A stretch of DNA of 24,022 nt from a virus (lineage: Duplodnaviria; Caudoviricetes). Location of the stretch: positions 1-24,022 of IMG/VR virus record IMGVR_UViG_3300033067_000478; one strand, given 5' to 3'. A program made the translations under genes and the position numbers. This document shows positions 8,664-24,022 of this stretch, piece after piece. The notes below the pieces were generated by a model. The model was not told the origin of the DNA. It did no database searches and was given only the letters and a program-made list of their open reading frames with translations. The first letter of the stretch is position 1. Every line of letters starts with the position of its first letter.

Positions 8664-9215
8664 ATGATGAACGCAAAAGAAACTCTAAAACAAGTCCGCA
8701 CTTTGTTGGGATTTGAAGAAGAAAAAAGTATCGCCTTTGAGACTGCAATGTTGAAGGATGGTACTATCGTAAAATGGGAGGGTGAGTTATCAGTAGGAAC
8801 TATCGTAATGGTAGAAACTGCCGAGGGCGATATCCCTGCACCCGACGCAACACACGAAATCGAAGACGGCACTCTTGTGACTACTCTTGATGGCGTTGTA
8901 ACTGAAATCGTGAAGCCAGAGATGGAAACACCAGAAGTAGAAATATCAGTAGAAGCCGAAGAGTTCGCTACCGTTGCTCGTTTCAACGAAGTCGTAGAAA
9001 CTCTTGAGTCTAAGATTGCTCAGTTGACTGCTTCTATCGAATCTTTGGTAAGCGAGAGAGCATCTCACAAAGAAGCGATGTCTAAAGTAGTTGAGTTGGT
9101 TGAGAAAGTAATTGACTTGCCAAGTGACGAACCTACCAAGAAACCTCACACACCTACCAAAGTAGAGTCTCAGTTTGAGAACTTGAAGAAATTTGCAAAC
9201 GCATTAAAGAAATAA
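8664..9215 (+). CDS. Putative capsid scaffolding protein
   Basis: Acidic protein with C-terminal coiled coil and APDATHEIEDG motif, between protease and capsid. Start ATG 8664 or 8667. Confidence 0.6.
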   Translation: MMNAKETLKQVRTLLGFEEEKSIAFETAMLKDGTIVKWEGELSVGTIVMVETAEGDIPAPDATHEIEDGTLVTTLDGVVTEIVKPEMETPEVEISVEAEEFATVARFNEVVETLESKIAQLTASIESLVSERASHKEAMSKVVELVEKVIDLPSDEPTKKPHTPTKVESQFENLKKFANALKK

Positions 9216-9240
9216 ACCAAATAAAAAACAAAAAAATACT

Positions 9241-10170
9241 ATGTCATTCGTTGTATCTTCCCTCAGCAACTACACCAACGAACAGTCTACCGACTTGTTG
9301 GTAAAAGCGTTGTTCGGTTCAAAAACCGCTTCAACTTTGCAAAGCGCAGGTCAAGTGCAGGTAGGCGTTAAATCGTCTGCTTCTTTGAACTTGTTGGCTT
9401 CTACCGTTTTCTTCCAAGCCGACGGCTGTGGTTACAATCCAAGTGGTGCTACTACTTTCACTCAACGTAACATCACCGTTGGTGCAGTTAAAGTAGAAGA
9501 GACATTGTGTCCTAAGACTTTGGAAGCAAAGTGGATGCAAACTCAAATCATGGCTGGTTCTCCAACTATGGTTCCTTTTGAAGAGCAAATCGGTAGCGAA
9601 AAATCTGCGGTTATTGCAGAAGGTATCGAAATTGCAATGTGGCAAGGTGACACAACTAGCGGAAACCCTAACTTGAACCGCTTCGATGGTTTCAACAAAA
9701 TTATCGCCGCCGCTTCTCCAACATTGGGTAATGGTGCGCCAACTACTTTCACTTCTGTAACCGTTACAAATATCGACGATATCTTAGACCAAATCTACGC
9801 TCAAATCCCATCTCGTGTGGCTGCAAAGAGTGACTTGGTTTGTTTCTTGGGAATCGACGCATTCAAATTGATGCTTGTTAACTTGAAGAATGCCAACTTA
9901 TTCCATTACGCAGTAGACGCAAGTCAAACTATGGAAATGGTTTACCCTGGCACTAACATGAAATTGATTGGCGTTGGTGGTTTGAATGGTACTAACAAAA
10001 TCGTTGCAGGTTCTTTGAGTAACTTCTTTGTAGGTACTGACCTTGCAAACGAAGAAGAGTCATATAAATTGTGGTACTCTGAGGACAACGACGAGGTTCG
10101 TTTCCGTACTACTTTCAAGTATGGTGTTCAAGTTGCTTACCCTAGCGAAGTTGTATATTTCACCCTCTAA
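9241..10170 (+). CDS. Major capsid protein
   Basis: 309 aa after protease and scaffold, preceded by an A-rich leader. ETLCPKTLE, MWQGD, FDGF motifs; strongly biased codon usage. Confidence 0.75.
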   Translation: MSFVVSSLSNYTNEQSTDLLVKALFGSKTASTLQSAGQVQVGVKSSASLNLLASTVFFQADGCGYNPSGATTFTQRNITVGAVKVEETLCPKTLEAKWMQTQIMAGSPTMVPFEEQIGSEKSAVIAEGIEIAMWQGDTTSGNPNLNRFDGFNKIIAAASPTLGNGAPTTFTSVTVTNIDDILDQIYAQIPSRVAAKSDLVCFLGIDAFKLMLVNLKNANLFHYAVDASQTMEMVYPGTNMKLIGVGGLNGTNKIVAGSLSNFFVGTDLANEEESYKLWYSEDNDEVRFRTTFKYGVQVAYPSEVVYFTL

Positions 10171-10183
10171 TCTAACATAAACA

Positions 10184-10690
10184 ATGGCTTGTCTTCTCAC
10201 TCAAGGTTTCACTCTAGATTGTAAAGATTCAATCGGAGGTATCAAGAGCATCCACTTAATCTCGTGGACTGCTTCCAAATTCACTATTGCGAGTGGCGAA
10301 GTTACTGCAACCACCGTCGCAAGTGGTGATGTTTATGACTATGAATTGCCAAAGGGTACTGGCTCAATGACTAACACTACAAACGTGTCAGTTGAGAATG
10401 GTACTACTTTCAATCAATGTGACGTAGCATTCAAATTGCGTCGCTTGTCTACTACTAAGCGCAACGAGATGAAACTTCTCGCTCAAGGTCGCACGTACAC
10501 AATCGTGCGTGACAACAACGATGCGTATTGGTTAGTAGGTAACGAGTATGGATGCGATGTGACTGCGATGGTTGCAAATAGCGGTACTGCTATGGGCGAT
10601 TCAAATGGTTACGAAGTGACTTTGTCAGCAATCGAAGCGGAAGCACCTTACAAATTGCAATCTAGCGTAGTGACTGCGTTAGGAATTTAA
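10184..10690 (+). CDS. Putative major tail (tube) protein
   Basis: 168 aa, beta-rich (CKDSIGGIK, DNNDAYWLVG, SGTAMGDSNGYEVTL). Follows the capsid gene with similar codon bias and precedes a terminator. Confidence 0.55.
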   Translation: MACLLTQGFTLDCKDSIGGIKSIHLISWTASKFTIASGEVTATTVASGDVYDYELPKGTGSMTNTTNVSVENGTTFNQCDVAFKLRRLSTTKRNEMKLLAQGRTYTIVRDNNDAYWLVGNEYGCDVTAMVANSGTAMGDSNGYEVTLSAIEAEAPYKLQSSVVTALGI

Positions 10691-10692
10691 CG

Positions 10693-10700
10693 TACATTTG
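10693..10700 (+). promoter_or_regulatory. Bacteroidota -7 element (TACATTTG) upstream of the putative sRNA
   Basis: Matches TAnnTTTG. No ORF lies between it and the terminator 35 nt downstream. The -33 element is weak. Confidence 0.5.
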
Positions 10701-10704
10701 TAGT

Positions 10705-10760
10705 TGTTCTTGATTCATATTAGTTTTCAGAATTGGGAGGGCTTCGGCTCTCCCTTTTTT
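10705..10760 (+). ncRNA. Putative trans-acting antisense sRNA targeting start codons of replication genes
   Basis: 10714-10728 is the exact reverse complement of 19566-19580 (ERF start). 10704-10719 matches 23015-23030 (DnaB start) at 15/16. Bounded by a promoter-like box and an intrinsic terminator. Confidence 0.6.
10735..10760 (+). terminator. Intrinsic terminator
   Basis: GGGAGGGC-TTCG-GCTCTCCC (8-bp stem with one G-U, cUUCGg tetraloop) followed by TTTTTT. Confidence 0.9.
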
Positions 10761-10786
10761 GTTACATCTTTTTGACGTTGCTATTT
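10761..10786 (+). promoter_or_regulatory. Putative phage late promoter (GTTACA-N14-CTATTT)
   Basis: Immediately after a terminator, so a new promoter is needed. CTATTT lies 7 nt before ATG 10794. Confidence 0.55.
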
Positions 10787-13533: not shown

Positions 13534-15420
13534 ATGAACTTCGAGAGACTTCAATTTCACGAGAATAAACTACCGACATTCAAAGAGAATAAGTCGAAAG
13601 ACATATACAACTTTGGAGATGACAACTTGTACCCCGATTTACTAGTAGACTTGTTCTCTAAATCACCCAAACACAACGCTATTGTATCATCAAAAGCGTC
13701 ATATGTTGCAGGTGTAGGAACTGCTATCGTAGGTGAGAACACTCAAGACGTAGCAAAAGCAGAAGCAAAACTAAAGTCAATCAACACATACGAGTCGTTT
13801 GAAGAAGTAAAGCAAAAAATCGCTTACGACTTAGAGTTATTCAATGGCTTTGCAATCGAGGTGATTTGGAATCGTGCGAAGACTGCAATCGCAGAACTTT
13901 ACCACCTACCTTTCAAGAATGTACGAGTAGGTCTTGACGATTGCTACTATTATAGTGAAGATTGGTCGAATCGTAGAGAAGAGATTGTTCATTACAACCC
14001 TTTCAACGAGAACACTCGTGAGTCAAAGCAGTTGTTCTACTATAAGATGTATCGACCAGGTCAAGGAGTTTACCCTTTGCCCGACTATGTAGGTGCGTTG
14101 AAGTACATCGAAATTGACACAGAAGTTTCAAACTGGCATTTGAACTCTATCAAGAATGGCTTCTCAGCGCAAACCTTGATACAAATGTTTAAGGGCGTAC
14201 CAACGCCAGAAGAAGCCAGAAAGGCAAAGCGTAGATTCAAAGACTCATATCAAGGTACAGACAACGCAGGTGGTTTGATATTGATGTATAACGACCCCAA
14301 CGAGAGAGAGTCGATTGTGTCAAACATTCAACCTAGCGACTTTGACAAACAATTTGATATCTTGAACAAGACGGTTCAACAAGAGATTTTTGTAGGTCAC
14401 AAAATCAACTCACCGATGTTGTTCGGTGTTCGTGTAGAAGGTCAACTCGGTGGTCGTAGCGAAATGATTGAAGCATACGAGATGTTTCAACAATCGTATG
14501 TAGAACCTCGTCAAGGTAAAATGGACGAGCAACTATCATATTTGTTCTCTTTCATCTCTCCTGTCAAACTTGAGACCATTAACAAACCACCTCTAGGACT
14601 TGACTACTTAGACTTGTACACTCGTAACTTGATATCAAACGAAGAAGCGCGTAAAGAGTTGGGATTGCCAGAACTTTCTACTGTGAAGATTCAATCAAAC
14701 TTGAACGACGCAATCAACTCTTTGAGTCCTTTGGTAGCGAACAACGTCTTGTCAAATATGACAATCAACGAGAAGCGTCAACTTGCAGGTTTACCACCTA
14801 TCGCAAATGGTGACAACATCGCAGGTGCAGAAGCAGTCGCTCTATCAAAAGCAAATCCTTTCGGTTGGGACGACGAGCGCGACTTGAAAGTCTTCTCTCA
14901 ATTTGGTGAAGATGCTTCTCTCTTTGAAGAGGTTAAAATGAGTTTCGCTAGTGACATCGAGAAAGCAATCTTGAACACAATCAAAGAAAACAAGGGTATC
15001 ACAATAGGCGAAGTTGTTAACATCATAGACGCAGACTTGTTGAAAGTGTCTCAAGCAATAGACAACTTGAATAAGACGGGAATGATTCAACCCGCAGAAG
15101 GTGGCTTGACAATCACAGACGATGGCTTGAGAGAAATCGCAGACATTCAAACTGAGTTACTCGTACGCTATAAATACGAGAAAGCACCAAACACAAAAGG
15201 TGATATCATTATAGACACATCTCGTGAGTTTTGTCGTAGCGTAGTAAGAGTCAATCGTGTATACTCTCGTCAAGATATTAACGATATGAGTGCGCTTCTA
15301 GGTTATGACGTATGGAAGCGTCGTGGTGGTTGGTATACTATCCCCGATTCATCACCTGCCGTGCATCGCCCATCGTGCAGACATATTTGGGCTTCTAAAG
15401 TAGTAAGAAGAAAGAAATGA
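13534..15420 (+). CDS. Portal protein with C-terminal extension
   Basis: FGDDNLYP, SPKHNAI, DLELFNGFAIEV, YPLPDY, NGFS, GTDNAG, HKINSPMLFG, EARKELGLP. The C-terminus carries SREFCR...RGGW...CRHIW. Confidence 0.8.
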   Translation: MNFERLQFHENKLPTFKENKSKDIYNFGDDNLYPDLLVDLFSKSPKHNAIVSSKASYVAGVGTAIVGENTQDVAKAEAKLKSINTYESFEEVKQKIAYDLELFNGFAIEVIWNRAKTAIAELYHLPFKNVRVGLDDCYYYSEDWSNRREEIVHYNPFNENTRESKQLFYYKMYRPGQGVYPLPDYVGALKYIEIDTEVSNWHLNSIKNGFSAQTLIQMFKGVPTPEEARKAKRRFKDSYQGTDNAGGLILMYNDPNERESIVSNIQPSDFDKQFDILNKTVQQEIFVGHKINSPMLFGVRVEGQLGGRSEMIEAYEMFQQSYVEPRQGKMDEQLSYLFSFISPVKLETINKPPLGLDYLDLYTRNLISNEEARKELGLPELSTVKIQSNLNDAINSLSPLVANNVLSNMTINEKRQLAGLPPIANGDNIAGAEAVALSKANPFGWDDERDLKVFSQFGEDASLFEEVKMSFASDIEKAILNTIKENKGITIGEVVNIIDADLLKVSQAIDNLNKTGMIQPAEGGLTITDDGLREIADIQTELLVRYKYEKAPNTKGDIIIDTSREFCRSVVRVNRVYSRQDINDMSALLGYDVWKRRGGWYTIPDSSPAVHRPSCRHIWASKVVRRKK

Positions 15421-15980
15421 CAAACTTTGTATACTTCGTTTCGACAACGTATTTGAAAGACAATACGCCTATCAACGAGAATGTCGATGACAAACTCTTA
15501 AAAAATGCCATCAAAGAGAGTCAAGAGATATACATTCGTGACATCATTGGAAGTGGTATCTATAACGAACTACAAACTCAAGCGTTTGCAGGTACACTCA
15601 CCGCGCTCAATACAACGCTTCTAGACTCTTATATTGCGCCGTGCTTGAAGTACTATACTTTATGTGAAGCGATGCTTCCTATGACGTTCAAATTGATGAA
15701 TAAGAGCGTAGCAAGTAGAGAGAGTGACAACGCTCGTGCAATAAGTGTAGACGAGTTGACTCTTTTAGAGAATCGCTATCGTGATAAAGCAGAGTACTAC
15801 GCGAATCGTTTGAGAGATTACTTGAGAGAATACACAAACGACTACCCGTTGTTCTTAAACCCTGGCTCAACCTTTGATACTATTCGCCCATCAAGCACTA
15901 CTTTTGTAGGAGGTATCTATTTACCCACAGACTATGACGATTGTTTCTGGAACTATGACTTCCCGCCCGACGAGAGATAA
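15417..15980 (+). CDS. Putative head-tail connector/adaptor
   Basis: 187 aa helical ORF, ATGA-coupled to the portal gene. Confidence 0.45.
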   Translation: MTNFVYFVSTTYLKDNTPINENVDDKLLKNAIKESQEIYIRDIIGSGIYNELQTQAFAGTLTALNTTLLDSYIAPCLKYYTLCEAMLPMTFKLMNKSVASRESDNARAISVDELTLLENRYRDKAEYYANRLRDYLREYTNDYPLFLNPGSTFDTIRPSSTTFVGGIYLPTDYDDCFWNYDFPPDER

Positions 15981-16027
15981 TAAGTGGCAAAAAAACAACG
16001 AAGCCAAACTCATTAAATTCTTAAAGA

Positions 16028-16471
16028 ATGACCCTAAATCAAATCATAGCAAAAATACGAACGCAAGTCGAAAGTCATAAGATGGTAGGGAAGTTCTCTG
16101 TTGGCGCAGAGTACAACCTAGCAGTCGACGATGTGAAGTTCTACCCTCTCGTTTGGTTAGTGCCAGACGGCTTTGATTTAGCAACTCGTGACGGGCGATA
16201 TGTGAACTATCGCTTTGCTCTTCTAGTATTCGATAGAGTATTCGAAAGCGAGTCAAACACAATCGAAGTGTTGAGCGATACTGCTCAAATTATTATCGAC
16301 ATTATGTCTCTAATCGACTACCACTACAACAACTTAGAAGATTTTCAGTTGATAGTGAGTAGCACGGCAGAGCCATTCTATGACGCAAAAACAGACATTG
16401 TCGCAGGTTATGGCATCCAATTCCAAATTTCTACTCCTTACTTGGCTAATAGTTGCGTTGTACCTGTGTAG
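16028..16471 (+). CDS. Putative tail terminator/head-tail joining protein
   Basis: 147 aa acidic ORF (YPLVW, EVLSDTAQI, AEPF, VAG) in the head-tail block. Confidence 0.5.
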   Translation: MTLNQIIAKIRTQVESHKMVGKFSVGAEYNLAVDDVKFYPLVWLVPDGFDLATRDGRYVNYRFALLVFDRVFESESNTIEVLSDTAQIIIDIMSLIDYHYNNLEDFQLIVSSTAEPFYDAKTDIVAGYGIQFQISTPYLANSCVVPV

Positions 16472-16715: not shown

Positions 16716-16932
16716 GGGTGCAAAAGCGAGACGCAAAGTTCTCGACTACAAAAAGTTGATTTTACTAGATTCTATTGAAATCGCACAAATCGACTCTATT
16801 CGCACAATTCAAGCACGAACAATACAAACTAAGCAAATCGAAATCGAGTCGCTTAGAACGCACGAGAAGACGCTTAAATCGCAAATAGTAGTTTTCTCTA
16901 TCATTGCTTTTGTGCTTGGTCTTATTATATGA
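16606..16932 (+). CDS. Signal peptide + coiled coil + C-terminal TM protein, spanin-like
   Basis: MTRCMLTLFLVLATGLKGQSIC..., a heptad-like middle and C-terminal IVVFSIIAFVLGLII. Start uncertain. Confidence 0.45.
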   Translation: MTRCMLTLFLVLATGLKGQSICIDTLTLSRANYYLVEGAKARRKVLDYKKLILLDSIEIAQIDSIRTIQARTIQTKQIEIESLRTHEKTLKSQIVVFSIIAFVLGLII

Positions 16933-17771
16933 AAAAAAACAACGTCATTCGAATCGACAAAAATTGGGAAGAAACAAAAGTTCTTCTCATCTCTGACTTA
17001 CATTGGGATAATCCTAAATGTGACAGAGCATTACTCAAGAAACATCTTGACGAAGCATTGAAAGGGAATCACGATATTCTCATCAATGGTGACTTGTTTT
17101 GTTTGATGCAAGGTGCTTACGACCCTCGCAAATCGAAGAGCGATATTCGAGAAGAGCATAACGTCGCAAACTACTTCGACGCTATTATCAATACGGCGGT
17201 TGATTGGTTCGCACCTTACGCACATCTCATCAAGTTGGTCGGATATGGCAATCACGAAACCGCAATCTTGAAGCGTCAAGAGACAGACATAATCGAGCGA
17301 TTTGTCACTCTTCTTAACTACAAGTGTGATACACAAATTCAAGTAGGTGGCTATGGTGGATGGATTCGCTACGCTTTTCGTACTGGCGAGAAACACACGA
17401 TAAGTTACGCTATCAAATATATGCACGGATTCGGTGGAGGTGGTGCAGTAACTCGCGGTACAATTCAACACAATCGTATGAGTGTCAACGTCGAGGGCGC
17501 AGACGCGATTTGGATGGGACACGTTCACGAAGACTACGAGTTGACTTACACCGTTGAGTATCTCACACACAAAGACACGGTACAACAACGCGATATCTTA
17601 ATGATTCGCACAAGTGCGTACAAAGAAGAGTATGGAGACGGCTCTAAAGGATGGCACGTCGAGAGAGGTGCGTCACCTAAACCAATCGGAGGGCGTTGGC
17701 TTATTCTTAAACCTGTTAGAGACGAGAATGAAGGTAGAAAGATTCACGCTTACACACACAAAACGCTATGA
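16929..17771 (+). CDS. Calcineurin-like metallophosphoesterase
   Basis: All five motifs are present: SDLH, NGD, GNHE, MHG, GHVH. Confidence 0.85.
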   Translation: MKKNNVIRIDKNWEETKVLLISDLHWDNPKCDRALLKKHLDEALKGNHDILINGDLFCLMQGAYDPRKSKSDIREEHNVANYFDAIINTAVDWFAPYAHLIKLVGYGNHETAILKRQETDIIERFVTLLNYKCDTQIQVGGYGGWIRYAFRTGEKHTISYAIKYMHGFGGGGAVTRGTIQHNRMSVNVEGADAIWMGHVHEDYELTYTVEYLTHKDTVQQRDILMIRTSAYKEEYGDGSKGWHVERGASPKPIGGRWLILKPVRDENEGRKIHAYTHKTL

Positions 17772-18001
17772 TAATTGATGTGTTAATCGTTCACGAAGAG
17801 AGAAACGACAATGCGTTTCTTGAGATGGGAGTAGACCCAGAAATCATAGAGTATCTTGAAGAAGGGCTTGTCGATTTGCGTCAAGTTGTAGCAATTAGCG
17901 CGTATCACGAACACACTCAACTCTTCTTAAATGGCGGTCATTCGTTGATAATTGACGAAGACTTTTATACTTTTGCGTCACGATGGAAAAAGATGCGATA
18001 A
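17768..18001 (+). CDS. Hypothetical protein
   Basis: 77 aa acidic ORF, ATGA-coupled upstream and overlapping the next gene. Confidence 0.55.
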   Translation: MIIDVLIVHEERNDNAFLEMGVDPEIIEYLEEGLVDLRQVVAISAYHEHTQLFLNGGHSLIIDEDFYTFASRWKKMR

Positions 18002-19345: not shown

Positions 19346-19376
19346 TTTGCATTATGAAAGAATTGTTGTACTTTTG
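19346..19376 (+). promoter_or_regulatory. Bacteroidota sigma-70 promoter (TTTG-N19-TACTTTTG), early operon 1
   Basis: TTTG 19346-19349 and TACTTTTG 19369-19376; ATG 6 nt later. Confidence 0.8.
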
Positions 19377-19382
19377 TGAGGT

Positions 19383-19574
19383 ATGACAAACATAGAGCAA
19401 ATTCAAGAAGAGTTAAAAAAGAAACACTATCACGGTCTTCAAAAGACTATCCACGAGAGAACAGGTTTGTCTCTCCCTACTATTCGTAAGTATTTGAAAG
19501 GTGACGTATATCACCCTACCGCGGTCAAAGTATTCAAGACGGCAAAAGAAATCATTGAACGAATCGAAAACTAA
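19383..19574 (+). CDS. Small HTH DNA-binding protein (Cro-like)
   Basis: 63 aa with HTH pattern QKTIHERTGLSLPTIRKYLKG; first gene after the early promoter. Confidence 0.65.
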   Translation: MTNIEQIQEELKKKHYHGLQKTIHERTGLSLPTIRKYLKGDVYHPTAVKVFKTAKEIIERIEN

Positions 19575-19575
19575 T

Positions 19576-20109
19576 ATGAACAAAAGCGAATCAATCAAGA
19601 ACATTGGACTTGCTTTATGCAAGTTTCAAGCATCAATCGGCAAGGTGTCGAAAGAAGCAAACAACCCTTTTTTCAAATCTAAGTACGCGTCACTAGCGAA
19701 CATCTTAGACACTATTCAAAAACCATTGAGTGAGTGCGGTCTTGCGTTTGCACAACTCCCAGACGATGACGCTTTGACGACTATCTTAATTCATAGCGAG
19801 AGCGGTGAATGGATTGAAGCGTCGTACAAGATGCCTGTCGCAAAACAAAACGACCCTCAAGCGATGGGTTCTGCAATCACTTACGCACGACGCTACGCTC
19901 TAGGTGCAATCTTAGGTCTTAACATCGACGACGATGACGATGGAGAGAAAGCAATGGGGCGCACACCACAAAAAGAAACTCTCACACCTAAACACCCAAA
20001 CTGGCAACGTGCAGTAGAACACATTCAAAAAGGTGGTAAGATTAGCGACATAACTCAAAAGTACACATTGAGTGAAGTTGACTACAAATTGTTGTCTAGT
20101 GTCAAATGA
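19576..20109 (+). CDS. erf: ERF family single-strand annealing protein
   Basis: NPFFKSKYASL, IHSESGEW, DPQAMGSAITYARRYAL, DDDG. Start moved to ATG 19576. Confidence 0.9.
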   Translation: MNKSESIKNIGLALCKFQASIGKVSKEANNPFFKSKYASLANILDTIQKPLSECGLAFAQLPDDDALTTILIHSESGEWIEASYKMPVAKQNDPQAMGSAITYARRYALGAILGLNIDDDDDGEKAMGRTPQKETLTPKHPNWQRAVEHIQKGGKISDITQKYTLSEVDYKLLSSVK

Positions 20110-20119
20110 ATGATTGAGA

Positions 20120-20749
20120 ATGGTTACGACTACACAAAGTGAAGAGCAATGGCTAGAGTTGCGACGCACAAGATTTACCGCTTCACAGATTCACAAGTTG
20201 ATGGGTACTCCGAGAAACAAATCGGAGTACTTGAGCGAGACCGCGAAGACTTTTATCTACGAGAAAGGCGCAGAGATTCTCACAAACCAAAGAAACGAAA
20301 TCTATGGTCGCGCTCTCGATTGGGGTAAAGAACACGAGAAACAAGCATACGAAGCGTTTGACCCTTTCAACACTCTCGCTACTTACTACGGAGGTGAGAC
20401 GTTCGTCTTCATCGAGTATGGTGAGTTTGGTGGGTATTCTCCCGATGCGCTAGGTGATGACTTTATCGTTGAGATAAAATGTCCTTTCAATAGCGGTGTT
20501 CATCTTCGCAACTTCTCAATCAAAACAAACGAAGACTTGAAGTCGCTTCATAGCGAGTACTACTGGCAGATGCAAATGGGTATGATTGCTAGTGCTTGCG
20601 AGAATGCGTTCTTTGTTTCTTATGACCCTAGATTTGAAGACTCACACAAGTTGCACGTAGTGAATATCACACTTGACGATGTGAAAGACTTGATTGATGA
20701 GAAGTTGTACTACGCAGGTCATATGCTTAGAAATGTCATAGAATTGTAA
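20120..20749 (+). CDS. YqaJ/lambda-type exonuclease
   Basis: QSEEQWLELR..FTAS, WGKEHE, SPDA, EIKCP, YYWQMQ; adjacent to ERF. Confidence 0.88.
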   Translation: MVTTTQSEEQWLELRRTRFTASQIHKLMGTPRNKSEYLSETAKTFIYEKGAEILTNQRNEIYGRALDWGKEHEKQAYEAFDPFNTLATYYGGETFVFIEYGEFGGYSPDALGDDFIVEIKCPFNSGVHLRNFSIKTNEDLKSLHSEYYWQMQMGMIASACENAFFVSYDPRFEDSHKLHVVNITLDDVKDLIDEKLYYAGHMLRNVIEL

Positions 20750-21575: not shown

Positions 21576-21664
21576 CAAATACACAACTAGCAATTTGGTA
21601 CGGGTTCATTCTCATGGCTTTTGTTCTTGGCTTTTACATAGGCAAATACGATGACCAGAAGTGA
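21572..21664 (+). CDS. Small single-TM protein
   Basis: Not in ORF track. MTNTQLAIWYGFILMAFVLGFYIGKYDDQK (30 aa); ATGA overlap upstream and fills the gap. Confidence 0.6.
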   Translation: MTNTQLAIWYGFILMAFVLGFYIGKYDDQK

Positions 21665-22040
21665 ACAATTCGATGTGATGTATATGGACATCGCACATAT
21701 CGTCGCTAAACTTTCAAGGTGCAATCGTGCAAAAGTCGGCGCAATTATAGTCAAAGATGGCAATATCATATCATTTGGCTACAATGGTACACCGACAGGA
21801 TTTTGCAACGAATGTGAAGAGAACGATGTGACGAAAGACGAAGTCATTCACGCAGAAATGAACGCTATCTTAAAAGCGGGTATAAACGCTCAAGGTGCAA
21901 CGATGTACGTCACGATGTCTCCTTGTATACAATGCTCTAAGATAATCAAACAGAGCGGTTTAGAATGCGTTATATTCGACAATTTATATAGAGACACTCA
22001 AGGACTGGATAAACTAAAAATAAATTATAGACAACTATGA
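21651..22040 (+). CDS. dCMP deaminase (ComEB-like)
   Basis: SRCxRxKVGA, GYNG, HAEMNAI and SPCIQC zinc-binding motifs. Confidence 0.9.
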   Translation: MTRSEQFDVMYMDIAHIVAKLSRCNRAKVGAIIVKDGNIISFGYNGTPTGFCNECEENDVTKDEVIHAEMNAILKAGINAQGATMYVTMSPCIQCSKIIKQSGLECVIFDNLYRDTQGLDKLKINYRQL

Positions 22041-22363: not shown

Positions 22364-22368
22364 AATTT

Positions 22369-23019
22369 ATGAAAGAACAAAACGAAGAACTGGGAATGTT
22401 TGTACTATTCCCAACAAACTATCTAGAGCATATGACTCCAAGACAAGCAGTCTTAATGGGTATGTTGATAGGTATGTCAAAGAGAAGTGGATACGCCTAT
22501 CCATCGAATAAAACTATCGGGACTATTCTCAATATGACGACAATCACCGTACAAAGAGAATTGGCAATACTAGAAGAAAAGGGATTTTTGACACGTCAAC
22601 TTATACGAGATGACAACAACCAGGTAGTATCAAGACGGATATACCCTCACATCAAAACTGATACTACCCTCATATCAAATCTGATACCACCCTCATATCA
22701 GAATTGCAATAGTAATAAGGATAATACTATATGTATAAATGATAAATATACATTCGATTATTTTTGGGATTTATACAAAAAGAAAGGAGTCAAAGAAACT
22801 GCTAAAAAAGCATTTAAGAAATTGAATGACTCAGAAAAAGAATTACTTGTGACGTTTATACCAAAATACATAGAGCATCATACAAAAGCGGACAAGATAG
22901 ATTTCTTACCACACTTTTCGACTTTCTTAAATCAAAAGAGGTGGAATGATGAACTACCGTACAAAATAAAAGAAGTAGCACAAATTACACCGAATAAACC
23001 TAAACTTGCAACACTATGA
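22369..23019 (+). CDS. Phage replication initiator (N-terminal HTH, lambda O-like organisation)
   Basis: GYAYPSNKTIG...TVQRELAILEEKGFL HTH; C-terminal FDYFWDLY...AKKAF...PHFSTFLNQKRW; internal iterons; ATGA-coupled to DnaB. Confidence 0.8.
   Translation: MKEQNEELGMFVLFPTNYLEHMTPRQAVLMGMLIGMSKRSGYAYPSNKTIGTILNMTTITVQRELAILEEKGFLTRQLIRDDNNQVVSRRIYPHIKTDTTLISNLIPPSYQNCNSNKDNTICINDKYTFDYFWDLYKKKGVKETAKKAFKKLNDSEKELLVTFIPKYIEHHTKADKIDFLPHFSTFLNQKRWNDELPYKIKEVAQITPNKPKLATL
22642..22710 (+). repeat. Three 23-bp tandem repeats (iterons, probable replication origin)
   Basis: TACCCTCACATCAAAACTGATAC / TACCCTCATATCAAATCTGATAC / CACCCTCATATCAGAATTGCAAT, followed by an AT-rich tract. Confidence 0.8.
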
Positions 23020-24022
23020 ATCTAGAACAAATGATACTATCAAACTTGCTCTTCTACAATGATGCAAGACACTTCTTACCACAAATCAATAAGAATTGGT
23101 TTACTCAAGATTTATCTCGTAGAGTTGTAGACGCGATGACAGAACTCTACTACGAGAATCAACCTGTCGACCTTGTTACTTTATCAAAGTATTTCACACG
23201 AGTAGAAGTTCTTGAGATTATTCGTATTCAACAAGAAGCAAGTGGGATGTCAAATATCAAAGTACACTTGAAGACTCTTGAGTACGAGTATATAAAGAGA
23301 ACGCTTGTCGACAGAGTTACTAACTTAAACTTGACAAAAGACTTGAGCGAGATGGTCAAAGATATTCAAAACATTCTTGAAGAGACTACATTCTCAACTC
23401 ACAAAGAGCCAGACTCAATCGTCAAAGTCACAAACAAAGTCGTTGACCAAATCATAGACAATAGTCTCAAAGGTGGTGCGCTCACAGGTAAACAAACAGG
23501 ATGGAGATATCTTGACAAATACATCGGAGGTTACAACGAAGGTGATTTGATTGTAGTAGCAGGTAGACCTGGAATGGGAAAGACTGCAATCGCTCTCACG
23601 CTCACAAAAGACTTCGCGATGTATAATCAAAAAGCGTTGTTCTTATCGCTTGAGATGTCGAATGAGCAACTCGCAAAACGATACTTGTCGTTGATTGGCA
23701 ATATCGAAAATTGGAAGATTCGAAATGGTCGTCTTGAGCGCATTGAGATTGATAATGTCATCAACGTAGCAAACAATCAATCTATCGAGTTCTTCATAGA
23801 CGACGACGTTGATACATCACTTGCACAAATCAAAGCGAAAGCGAAGTTGCACAAATCTCGCAAAGGTCTAGACTTGCTTGTCATTGACTACATTCAATTA
23901 ATCAAAGGAACAAAAGCCAATCGTGAGCAGGAGATAGCAGAAATCTCACGAGGTTTGAAACTACTTGCAAAAGAGTTGAAAATCACGGTTATCGTTCTCG
24001 CGCAATTATCTCGTAAGAGCGA
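23016..24022 (+). CDS. dnaB: DnaB-like replicative helicase (3'-truncated by window)
   Basis: Not in ORF track. MNLEQMILSNLL...TGWRYLDKYIGGYNEGDLIVVAGRPGMGKT (Walker A), FLSLEMS, LLVIDYIQLI (Walker B), NREQEIAEISRGLKLLAKEL, LAQLSR. Confidence 0.95.
   Translation, partial: MNLEQMILSNLLFYNDARHFLPQINKNWFTQDLSRRVVDAMTELYYENQPVDLVTLSKYFTRVEVLEIIRIQQEASGMSNIKVHLKTLEYEYIKRTLVDRVTNLNLTKDLSEMVKDIQNILEETTFSTHKEPDSIVKVTNKVVDQIIDNSLKGGALTGKQTGWRYLDKYIGGYNEGDLIVVAGRPGMGKTAIALTLTKDFAMYNQKALFLSLEMSNEQLAKRYLSLIGNIENWKIRNGRLERIEIDNVINVANNQSIEFFIDDDVDTSLAQIKAKAKLHKSRKGLDLLVIDYIQLIKGTKANREQEIAEISRGLKLLAKELKITVIVLAQLSRKS

Follow-up and report, generated by a model that had tools for sequence, protein, structure and literature searches.

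The stretch of DNA analyzed here, referred to as the window, is a virus record of 24,022 bases with an estimated completeness of 77%. All of its called genes are on the plus strand. The gene order runs from the end of the terminase gene through the tail genes, a head protease gene, a probable scaffold gene, the capsid and tube genes, and the portal gene to the lysis genes, which are followed by an early block composed of an HTH-like gene, erf, a YqaJ exonuclease gene, the initiator gene (phrog_270), and DnaB, the name of which was confirmed by a family search. At 13534-16471 of the window, the portal gene follows the tail-fibre block and is set apart from the terminase and capsid genes, an order shared by the relatives compared. 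Accessory genes in the window encode PAPS-reductase-like (408-1193), metallophosphoesterase/exonuclease-like (16929-17771), and dCMP deaminase (21651-22040) proteins. Relevant coordinates are provided in Table 1. The scaffold, capsid, and tube names are probable assignments. Family searches returned no named family for the scaffold or capsid, and sequence searches of solved structures returned no match for the capsid or tube. The nearest named Atlas cluster for the tube gene is Phage_TTP_16 at 0.85, which is a lead only, and the structure model of its product is mostly β with a pLDDT of 74.

Table 1 Features of the window and related units in other genomes
Feature	Position	Strand	Basis or remark
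Probable scaffold gene	8664/8667-9215	+	ORF; position behind head protease, size, conservation; forms, with the capsid gene (8664..10170), the 5' portion of the probable late operon terminated by the antisense element
Probable major capsid gene	9241-10170	+	ORF; position behind head protease, size, conservation
Probable tail tube gene	10184..10690	+	phrog_19091, unknown function; stop codon opens the 3' UTR
TAnnTTTG box, TACATTTG	10693..10700	+	without -33 TTG; possible weak promoter
Antisense block B	10705..10714	+	complementary to erf coding bases 19594-19603
Antisense block A, with anti-AUG	10715..10728	+	antisense to the leader and start codon of erf
Intrinsic terminator: hairpin with U run	10735..10760	+	fold; two-sided changes
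Late-promoter-like motif of next gene (ends GCTATTT)	10761..10786	+	recurs before virion-gene starts; promoter role inferred
Host-type early promoter of erf operon	19347..19376	+	TTG, 19 nt, TACTTTTG
First early gene, HTH-like, nearly leaderless	19383..19574	+	Atlas lead, LacI 32% / HTH_3 12% of members
Predicted target site: leader and AUG of erf, the stop codon upstream, and the region of codons 7-10	19566..19603	+	duplex prediction
erf, single-strand annealing recombinase	19576..20109	+	ERF PF04404, E 1.6e-27
YqaJ-like exonuclease, directly 3' of erf, partner gene	20120..20749	+	PF09588, E 3.6e-13
DnaB start match	23015..23030	+	15/16; not maintained in relatives
Stand-alone units in other genomes	G045 31031; G046 8289; G047 20555; G048 7745; G049 23630; G050 14682	tube-oriented	

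The family to which the window belongs is made up of uncultured aquatic phages; runs with small word shares were left out of the habitat assignment. A search of 50,697 phage records with the tube protein yielded no cultured matches other than the Nonlabens phages P12024S and L, at 31-32%. On the basis of these matches and of TAnnTTTG-type promoters (-33 TTG/-7), which we take to be the host consensus, before the early genes, the host is inferred to belong to the Bacteroidota. Complete host-type promoters are found in the window at 17968, 19369, 20810, and 22261, and that of the erf operon occupies the same position in the 11 genomes compared. A search for an informative prophage for host assignment found none. 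Three matches in assemblies labelled Gammaproteobacteria or Pseudomonadales resemble co-assembled phage contigs. A single 45-kb contig (L477/L478) from a Gammaproteobacteria-labelled assembly carries a family phage twice in inverted orientation and is probably a co-assembled or amplified contaminant.

The element of interest is located between the probable tube stop codon and the operon terminator. Its anti-AUG, CAT, lies at 10716-10718. The terminator hairpin (10735-10754) has a UUCG loop, is followed by six T, and displays a fold z of about -3.2. Four of its eight pairs show two-sided changes among 26 diverse loci and hence covary. No ORF of at least 50 residues was present in the ORF list for this region. 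The first-pass annotation of the window had described a TAnnTTTG box, a U-rich stretch around an anti-AUG, and a cUUCGg terminator with no ORF, and all of these statements about the sequence hold. The Rfam search that it proposed gave no covariance-model match at the element up to an E value of 5, and one unrelated sub-threshold match elsewhere. Two other identities for the element were considered and rejected. The first was a small protein gene on the minus strand, for which all three frames offer 3-29 residues and shift between near-identical genomes, and the second was mimicry of the initiator-tRNA anticodon loop, in that the CAU is not contained within a hairpin loop.

Loci were gathered by querying with the tube protein along with five homologues. 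This resulted in 358 family loci (69-100% tube identity), 346 of which are complete, the other 12 being cut short. An anti-AUG, scored as TCAT no more than 37 nt from the stop codon, occurs in 345 of the 346 complete loci versus 0.11 expected from shuffles, and in 115 of the 116 distinct family sequences. The conserved core among 26 diverse loci is TTCAT, and its flanks vary. In the distant P12024S group (67 loci, about 32% tube identity), the motif is not enriched: it was found in 16 of 62 complete loci and in 11 of 39 distinct sequences, with 0.23 expected. TTCAT also lies upstream of 2 of 11 other terminators. One of these is the duplicated element of genome G049 and the other is a second anti-erf unit. 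In G049 (L283), an HNH-family gene and a further gene have been inserted behind the tube gene, and an antisense element precedes both terminators.

Positions 10714-10728 are the exact reverse complement (15/15) of 19566-19580 at the start of erf, 8.9 kb away on the same strand. No further match to 10714-10728 occurs in the window at two or fewer mismatches, 0.19 being expected by chance. A second block of the element matches 19593-19603, and a single predicted duplex between 10705-10728 and the erf start accommodates 24 bp, of which 14 span -10 to +4 and 10 span 19594-19603. The two blocks are contiguous in the element and 14 nt apart in the target, where the intervening bases form a loop. The erf site is predicted to be accessible, with an opening cost of 4.0 kcal/mol. 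For the seed, the cost is 3.6-5.6 kcal/mol within the long message and 1.5-1.6 kcal/mol, or nearly free, in a 56-61 nt form. When accessibility was taken into account for 35 starts of the window, erf scored -16.2 kcal/mol, the next start, DnaB, -6.3 kcal/mol, and the initiator +4.2 kcal/mol. Of 200 shuffles of the window's element, 1 reached the erf energy when paired with erf and 3 did so when the best start of any gene was taken. The earlier report of a 15/15 match plus 9 more bp at the erf start is thereby confirmed as 24 bp and as above chance, and it survives the shuffled controls suggested at that time. The arrangement, by prediction, is that of an accessible seed followed by an intrinsic terminator, and the complementarity, imperfect and lying over the translation start of a target encoded elsewhere, is of the trans type.

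For comparison, 46 relatives were read nearly whole or in part, along with the window and P12024S. Gene calling relied on a simple coding model, with starts settled by voting within families, and each element was paired with all of the start regions of its own genome. In the 41 genomes holding erf, this gene ranked first in 25, among the top three in 28, among the top five in 29, and outside the top five in 12. With accessibility included, erf was first in 14 of 18 genomes, and 2nd, 4th, 9th, and 10th in the others. It was first in all six genomes of the window's clade when starts were taken from -20 to +30. Viewed from the erf side, across the whole plus strand of 26 genomes, the tube UTR was the top partner in 8 and among the top two in 15, and ranked only 44th-59th in three. 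Dinucleotide shuffles reached the erf energy against erf in at most 1 of 200 cases in each of eight genomes. Against the best of all starts the corresponding counts per 200 were 3, 76, 0, 0, 2, 11, 26, and 83, and single genomes are therefore not always convincing. Pairing of the element with its own operon was rejected: the lowest-ranked targets are the capsid, post-tube, scaffold, and tube starts, with mean rank fractions of 0.82 for the capsid, 0.72 for the scaffold, and 0.66 for the tube, and the scaffold contrasts on the tree described below are positive at 8 of 9 nodes, which argues against self-pairing.

In a swap test with 27 genomes from 10 clades, own pairs of element and erf start had a mean of -16.0 kcal/mol and foreign pairs one of -10.3 kcal/mol, a result equalled in 0 of 5000 permutations, and erf was the only one of 34 gene families to pass correction. 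On a capsid and tube tree, own erf pairing was the better at 9 of 9 nodes (mean -4.3), although the clades were drawn by hand, nested contrasts reuse clades, and the tree, built by a quick method, has two unresolved nodes, so that these counts are not fully independent. The states before the AUG are matched clade by clade as TAAT, CCT, TCT, GAT, and ACT. At position -3, 26 of 36 distinct pairs are complementary versus 11.8 expected, and at position -2, 25 of the 36 are complementary, plus five wobbles, versus 16.1 expected. One of the ten clades (G035, G036, and G041) fails in that its erf match has been lost (own pairing -5.5). In this clade the element instead matches the HTH-like gene, over nine bases within its first codons.

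Eleven records, eight from the family and three distant, were fetched after the hypothesis had been fixed. The erf ranks in the eight family genomes were 4/53, 5/54, 7/58, 1/57, 1/33, 3/25, 8/26, and 1/35. Thus erf was first in only three, and for four of the eight elements a foreign erf start was a better pairing partner than the cognate one. The new genomes contributed the matched states CACAT-ATGAA and TACAACT-ATGAA, and in one with a clade-4-type UTR both sides had switched to CCT. None of the three distant genomes, all from the P12024S group, showed an erf match (ranks 22/54, 34/59, and 17/38). Compensatory change between the element and the erf start, put forward in the first-pass annotation as a check, was thus observed in the swap test, on the tree, and in the matched states. 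To judge from these sequence comparisons, it is very probable that RNA pairing with the start of erf has been under selection.

It had also been proposed that DnaB and the initiator are targets. Matches to both are indeed present in the window, that to DnaB with 0.09 expected by chance and that to the initiator consisting of 13 bp with a 3-nt bulge (22368-22380). As conserved co-targets they were rejected on the basis of the swap test, the tree contrasts, and a one-base insertion in close relatives. The uncorrected swap-test p values, among 34 families, were 0.003 for the HTH-like gene, 0.02 for the initiator, and 0.30 for DnaB, the DnaB ranking and swap figures including five wrong starts that were corrected for the tree contrasts. 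In those contrasts, the HTH-like gene paired better with its own element at 8 of 9 nodes (mean -1.6), the initiator did so at 7 of 8 (mean -1.2), and DnaB at 5 of 8. In all six of the closest genomes erf is first. Three of them have an extra T that leaves the erf duplex fully paired, whereas DnaB falls from rank 5-8 to rank 13-17. The six place the initiator at ranks 11-45, and its start has been exchanged between genomes. The DnaB match may provide weak binding in the window genome. A likelier second target, in some clades only and not in the window genome, would be the first early gene, and in G039 and G040 the second of two anti-AUGs fits the start of this HTH-like gene.

With respect to the source of the RNA, the GCTATTT motif is positioned at 2130, 7744, 10780, and 13520, a few bases before the starts at 2143, 7751, 10794, and 13534, and is probably a late promoter that yields nearly leaderless messages. 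Given that it precedes the gene immediately after the terminator, the latter likely closes a late scaffold-capsid-tube operon. The TAnnTTTG box at 10693 has no TTG 17-23 nt upstream (-33) and is found in only 27 of the 346 complete loci, and for these reasons the late operon's 3' end is a likelier source of the RNA than a promoter of its own. The first-pass annotation had allowed for both sources; the capsid/tube 3' end probably stands, and an own promoter is a weak option for most of the family. The window contains 34 TAnnTTTG sites, and the box alone is not beyond chance. A sigma-70 scan found no promoter at the element, sigma-70 being the wrong promoter type for the inferred host, and a proposed phage sigma factor could not be confirmed. 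Contigs from three RNA-labelled runs end at 10642, 10656, and 10668, and one runs through; the ends differ and the strains are divergent. Assembled contigs from other runs span the site.

The same pairing might be carried out by a stand-alone RNA of ∼55 nt, transcribed from the TAnnTTTG box by the host polymerase, that, rather than providing late feedback, buffers or caps Erf from an early stage or protects a carrier cell. The box, although confined to the window's clade and one other lineage, is present in all six genomes of that clade, and in such a short form the seed would be nearly free. In addition, six genomes from two other clades contain a second box-seed-terminator unit elsewhere, before tail genes, with the same box-to-seed distance, and five of these have a -33 TTG 18-20 nt upstream of the box. 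The window has no such unit at the matching place. The seeds of these units favor erf, with ranks of 1, 1, 1, 2, 4, and 6; a seventh unit at the same site ranks erf 35/39 and a further unit in G050 ranks it 12/43. They are candidate promoter-driven small RNAs whose recurrence suggests repeated selection for an anti-erf RNA, and they keep the possibility of an own promoter alive for the window's clade. Against it are the missing TTG at 10693, the occurrence of the box in 27 loci versus that of the seed in 345, and the anti-AUG in some clades only 7 nt behind the tube stop codon. Neither an integrase nor a repressor was encountered among the families scanned, the scan not extending to rarer genes. 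Overall, a stand-alone RNA at this site appears rather unlikely.

Other units were noted before the initiator gene. In G035, G036, G038, G039, G040, and G058 a conserved promoter box is followed by a 14-17 nt leader and a strong hairpin with a U run, possibly an attenuator or a small structured RNA. The eight promoter-hairpin units at this location rank erf 27-46.

Covariation by itself provides no direction. The early erf message could bind the late tail and so alter its termination or stability, or, at the DNA level, both sites could be bound by a phage protein with a specificity that drifts between clades; the HTH-like protein is not the same in all clades (about 43% identity). In nearly all clades, however, the match has the erf AUG at its center, and neither the element nor the erf site is at a promoter or palindromic. 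Two blocks that are contiguous in the element and separated in the target suit an RNA duplex rather than an operator. Near the core (-4 to +7), the count of wobbles versus A-C pairs, 20 versus 9, leans toward wobble, with rows that are not independent and too few independent events. Both of these explanations are considered improbable.

Even less credence is given to a broad mask of Bacteroidota-type start regions, by which host translation would be damped and erf would be one of many targets. In several clades the reverse complement of the element is indeed near an A-rich leader plus ATGAAA, and there 1-4% of foreign phage starts (4-25 of 600) pair as well as the cognate erf. ATGAA, moreover, opens 15 of 117 structural versus 93 of 313 other starts. 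In the window's clade and three others, however, equally good matches are limited to 0-1 of 600 foreign starts, foreign phage starts serving here as a proxy for those of the host. The flanks follow erf away from the consensus (to CCT, TCT, and GAT), and the probable scaffold gene itself starts with ATGAA in 9 of 10 clades. Finally, a chance match ahead of a terminator or a small gene beginning on the minus strand, to which the A/U-richness of both sites, the commonness of ATGAA, and the two TTCAT-bearing terminators might lend some color, is very improbable and largely refuted by the swap test, the tree contrasts, the frame check, and the conservation counts: those two terminators are the G049 duplicate and a second anti-erf unit, shuffles with TTCAT held fixed reach the erf energy in only 0-6 of 200 cases, and the distant relatives show no enrichment.

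We thus favor, as fairly probable, a trans-acting antisense RNA at the 3' end of the capsid-tube message that is predicted to turn down erf late in infection. Of the early-to-late antisense control proposed previously, what stands is that the element is directed against a start codon at a distance of 9 kb and that matched changes in relatives maintain the complementarity. According to this model, the scaffold-capsid-tube operon would be transcribed late and abundantly and would end at 10760. Its U-rich tail, either whole or as a processed piece of 55-70 nt, would pair with erf over its leader, AUG, and early codons, forming two blocks. Shine-Dalgarno sequences are absent from Bacteroidetes, in which initiation is described as tuned by structure and by the bases upstream of the AUG (PMC6847099). 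Given this mode of initiation and the start-codon pairing of GibS discussed below, the 24-bp duplex over the leader and AUG is predicted to block initiation; ribosome loading and re-initiation would both be hindered, with possible polarity on the exonuclease gene. Phage recombinases serve in repair, circularization, and replication, and Erf-type proteins sensitize lactococcal phages to AbiK, as described in PMC2896510. Lowering of Erf as the capsid message accumulates would constitute a negative feedback that limits annealing-driven recombination while genomes are being packaged, and might leave less branched DNA at packaging and less exposure to AbiK-like defenses. The antisense RNA would also hinder a superinfecting close relative, and in some clades the first early gene could serve as the second target.

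The known phage small RNAs are mostly from Proteobacteria and are Hfq-dependent or cis-encoded, and to our knowledge early-gene shut-off in Bacteroidota phages has been little described. OOP and aQ of lambda and sar of P22 are encoded in cis to their targets. These RNAs resemble the element in that phage RNA blocks or destabilizes phage mRNA by pairing, and differ from it in being antisense to their own target genes, which are regulators of lysis and lysogeny according to PMC12197685, whereas the element would act in trans, through imperfect pairing, on a recombinase. The same-strand location of its target 8.9 kb away and the split duplex set it apart from the cis-antisense type. The closest likeness within the phylum is GibS of Bacteroides thetaiotaomicron, which places a long, unstructured, AU-rich seed over start codons and is described as working without an Hfq or ProQ homologue (PMC7366714). 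A second Bacteroides case involves pairing in the 5' coding region (PMC10994844). Unlike the element, GibS is a host-encoded, stand-alone RNA of 145 nt acting on metabolic genes, as reported in PMC7366714, whereas the element is a phage structural-operon 3' UTR directed at the phage's own recombinase; the absence of an Rfam match likewise provides no sequence family link between the two. CisR of Vibrio cholerae also has its seed at an mRNA 3' end, shares the terminator, and represses a phage mRNA in trans, but it is host-encoded and Hfq-assisted in the account given (PMC13250501), whereas both source and target are phage genes here. In the icaR message of Staphylococcus aureus, the 3' UTR similarly masks a translation start region; this occurs on its own message through an anti-Shine-Dalgarno motif (PMC3868564), whereas the element addresses an AUG region 9 kb away and its own operon ranks at the bottom. 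Two lambda RNAs, LPR2 and 6S, likewise lie in the late operon, and the one early-operon RIL-seq target reported for 6S is a hint of late-to-early RNA contact (10.1101/2024.10.31.621285). In contrast to the element, lambda PreS, LPR2, and 6S are Hfq-bound, PreS acts mainly on host genes, and the functions of LPR2 and 6S are described in that report as unexplored. In the literature covered, with most subscription journals outside its scope, no phage structural-operon 3' UTR was found described as repressing an early phage gene in trans.

If confirmed, the model would mean that a structural mRNA regulates a recombinase in trans, would be relevant to the means by which phages curb recombination and mosaic exchange at late stages of infection, and would provide gene knock-down in this Hfq-less phylum with a compact scaffold of seed plus terminator. 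One seed and one target that track each other across about ten lineages supply natural own and swapped pairs for tests of specificity. A wider picture, which we regard as possible rather than probable, is that Bacteroidota phages time their genes by RNA, the tail of the most abundant late message being a protein-free feedback switch on the recombinase AUG, with which it co-evolves from clade to clade, and also a means of kin-specific superinfection exclusion, within an undescribed, phylum-wide layer of mRNA-to-mRNA control of which the present family would be a clear example. Such a layer, if real, would suit ribosomes that ignore Shine-Dalgarno sequences.

Elsewhere in the window, the intergenic stretch at 1982-2143 is variable, contains short AT-rich repeated motifs, and is a hot spot for inserted DNA. 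Similar repeats are present in many relatives. In G039, G048, and G059, tRNA-like sequences, recognized by eye, lie in the variable intergenic region upstream of the first tail gene.
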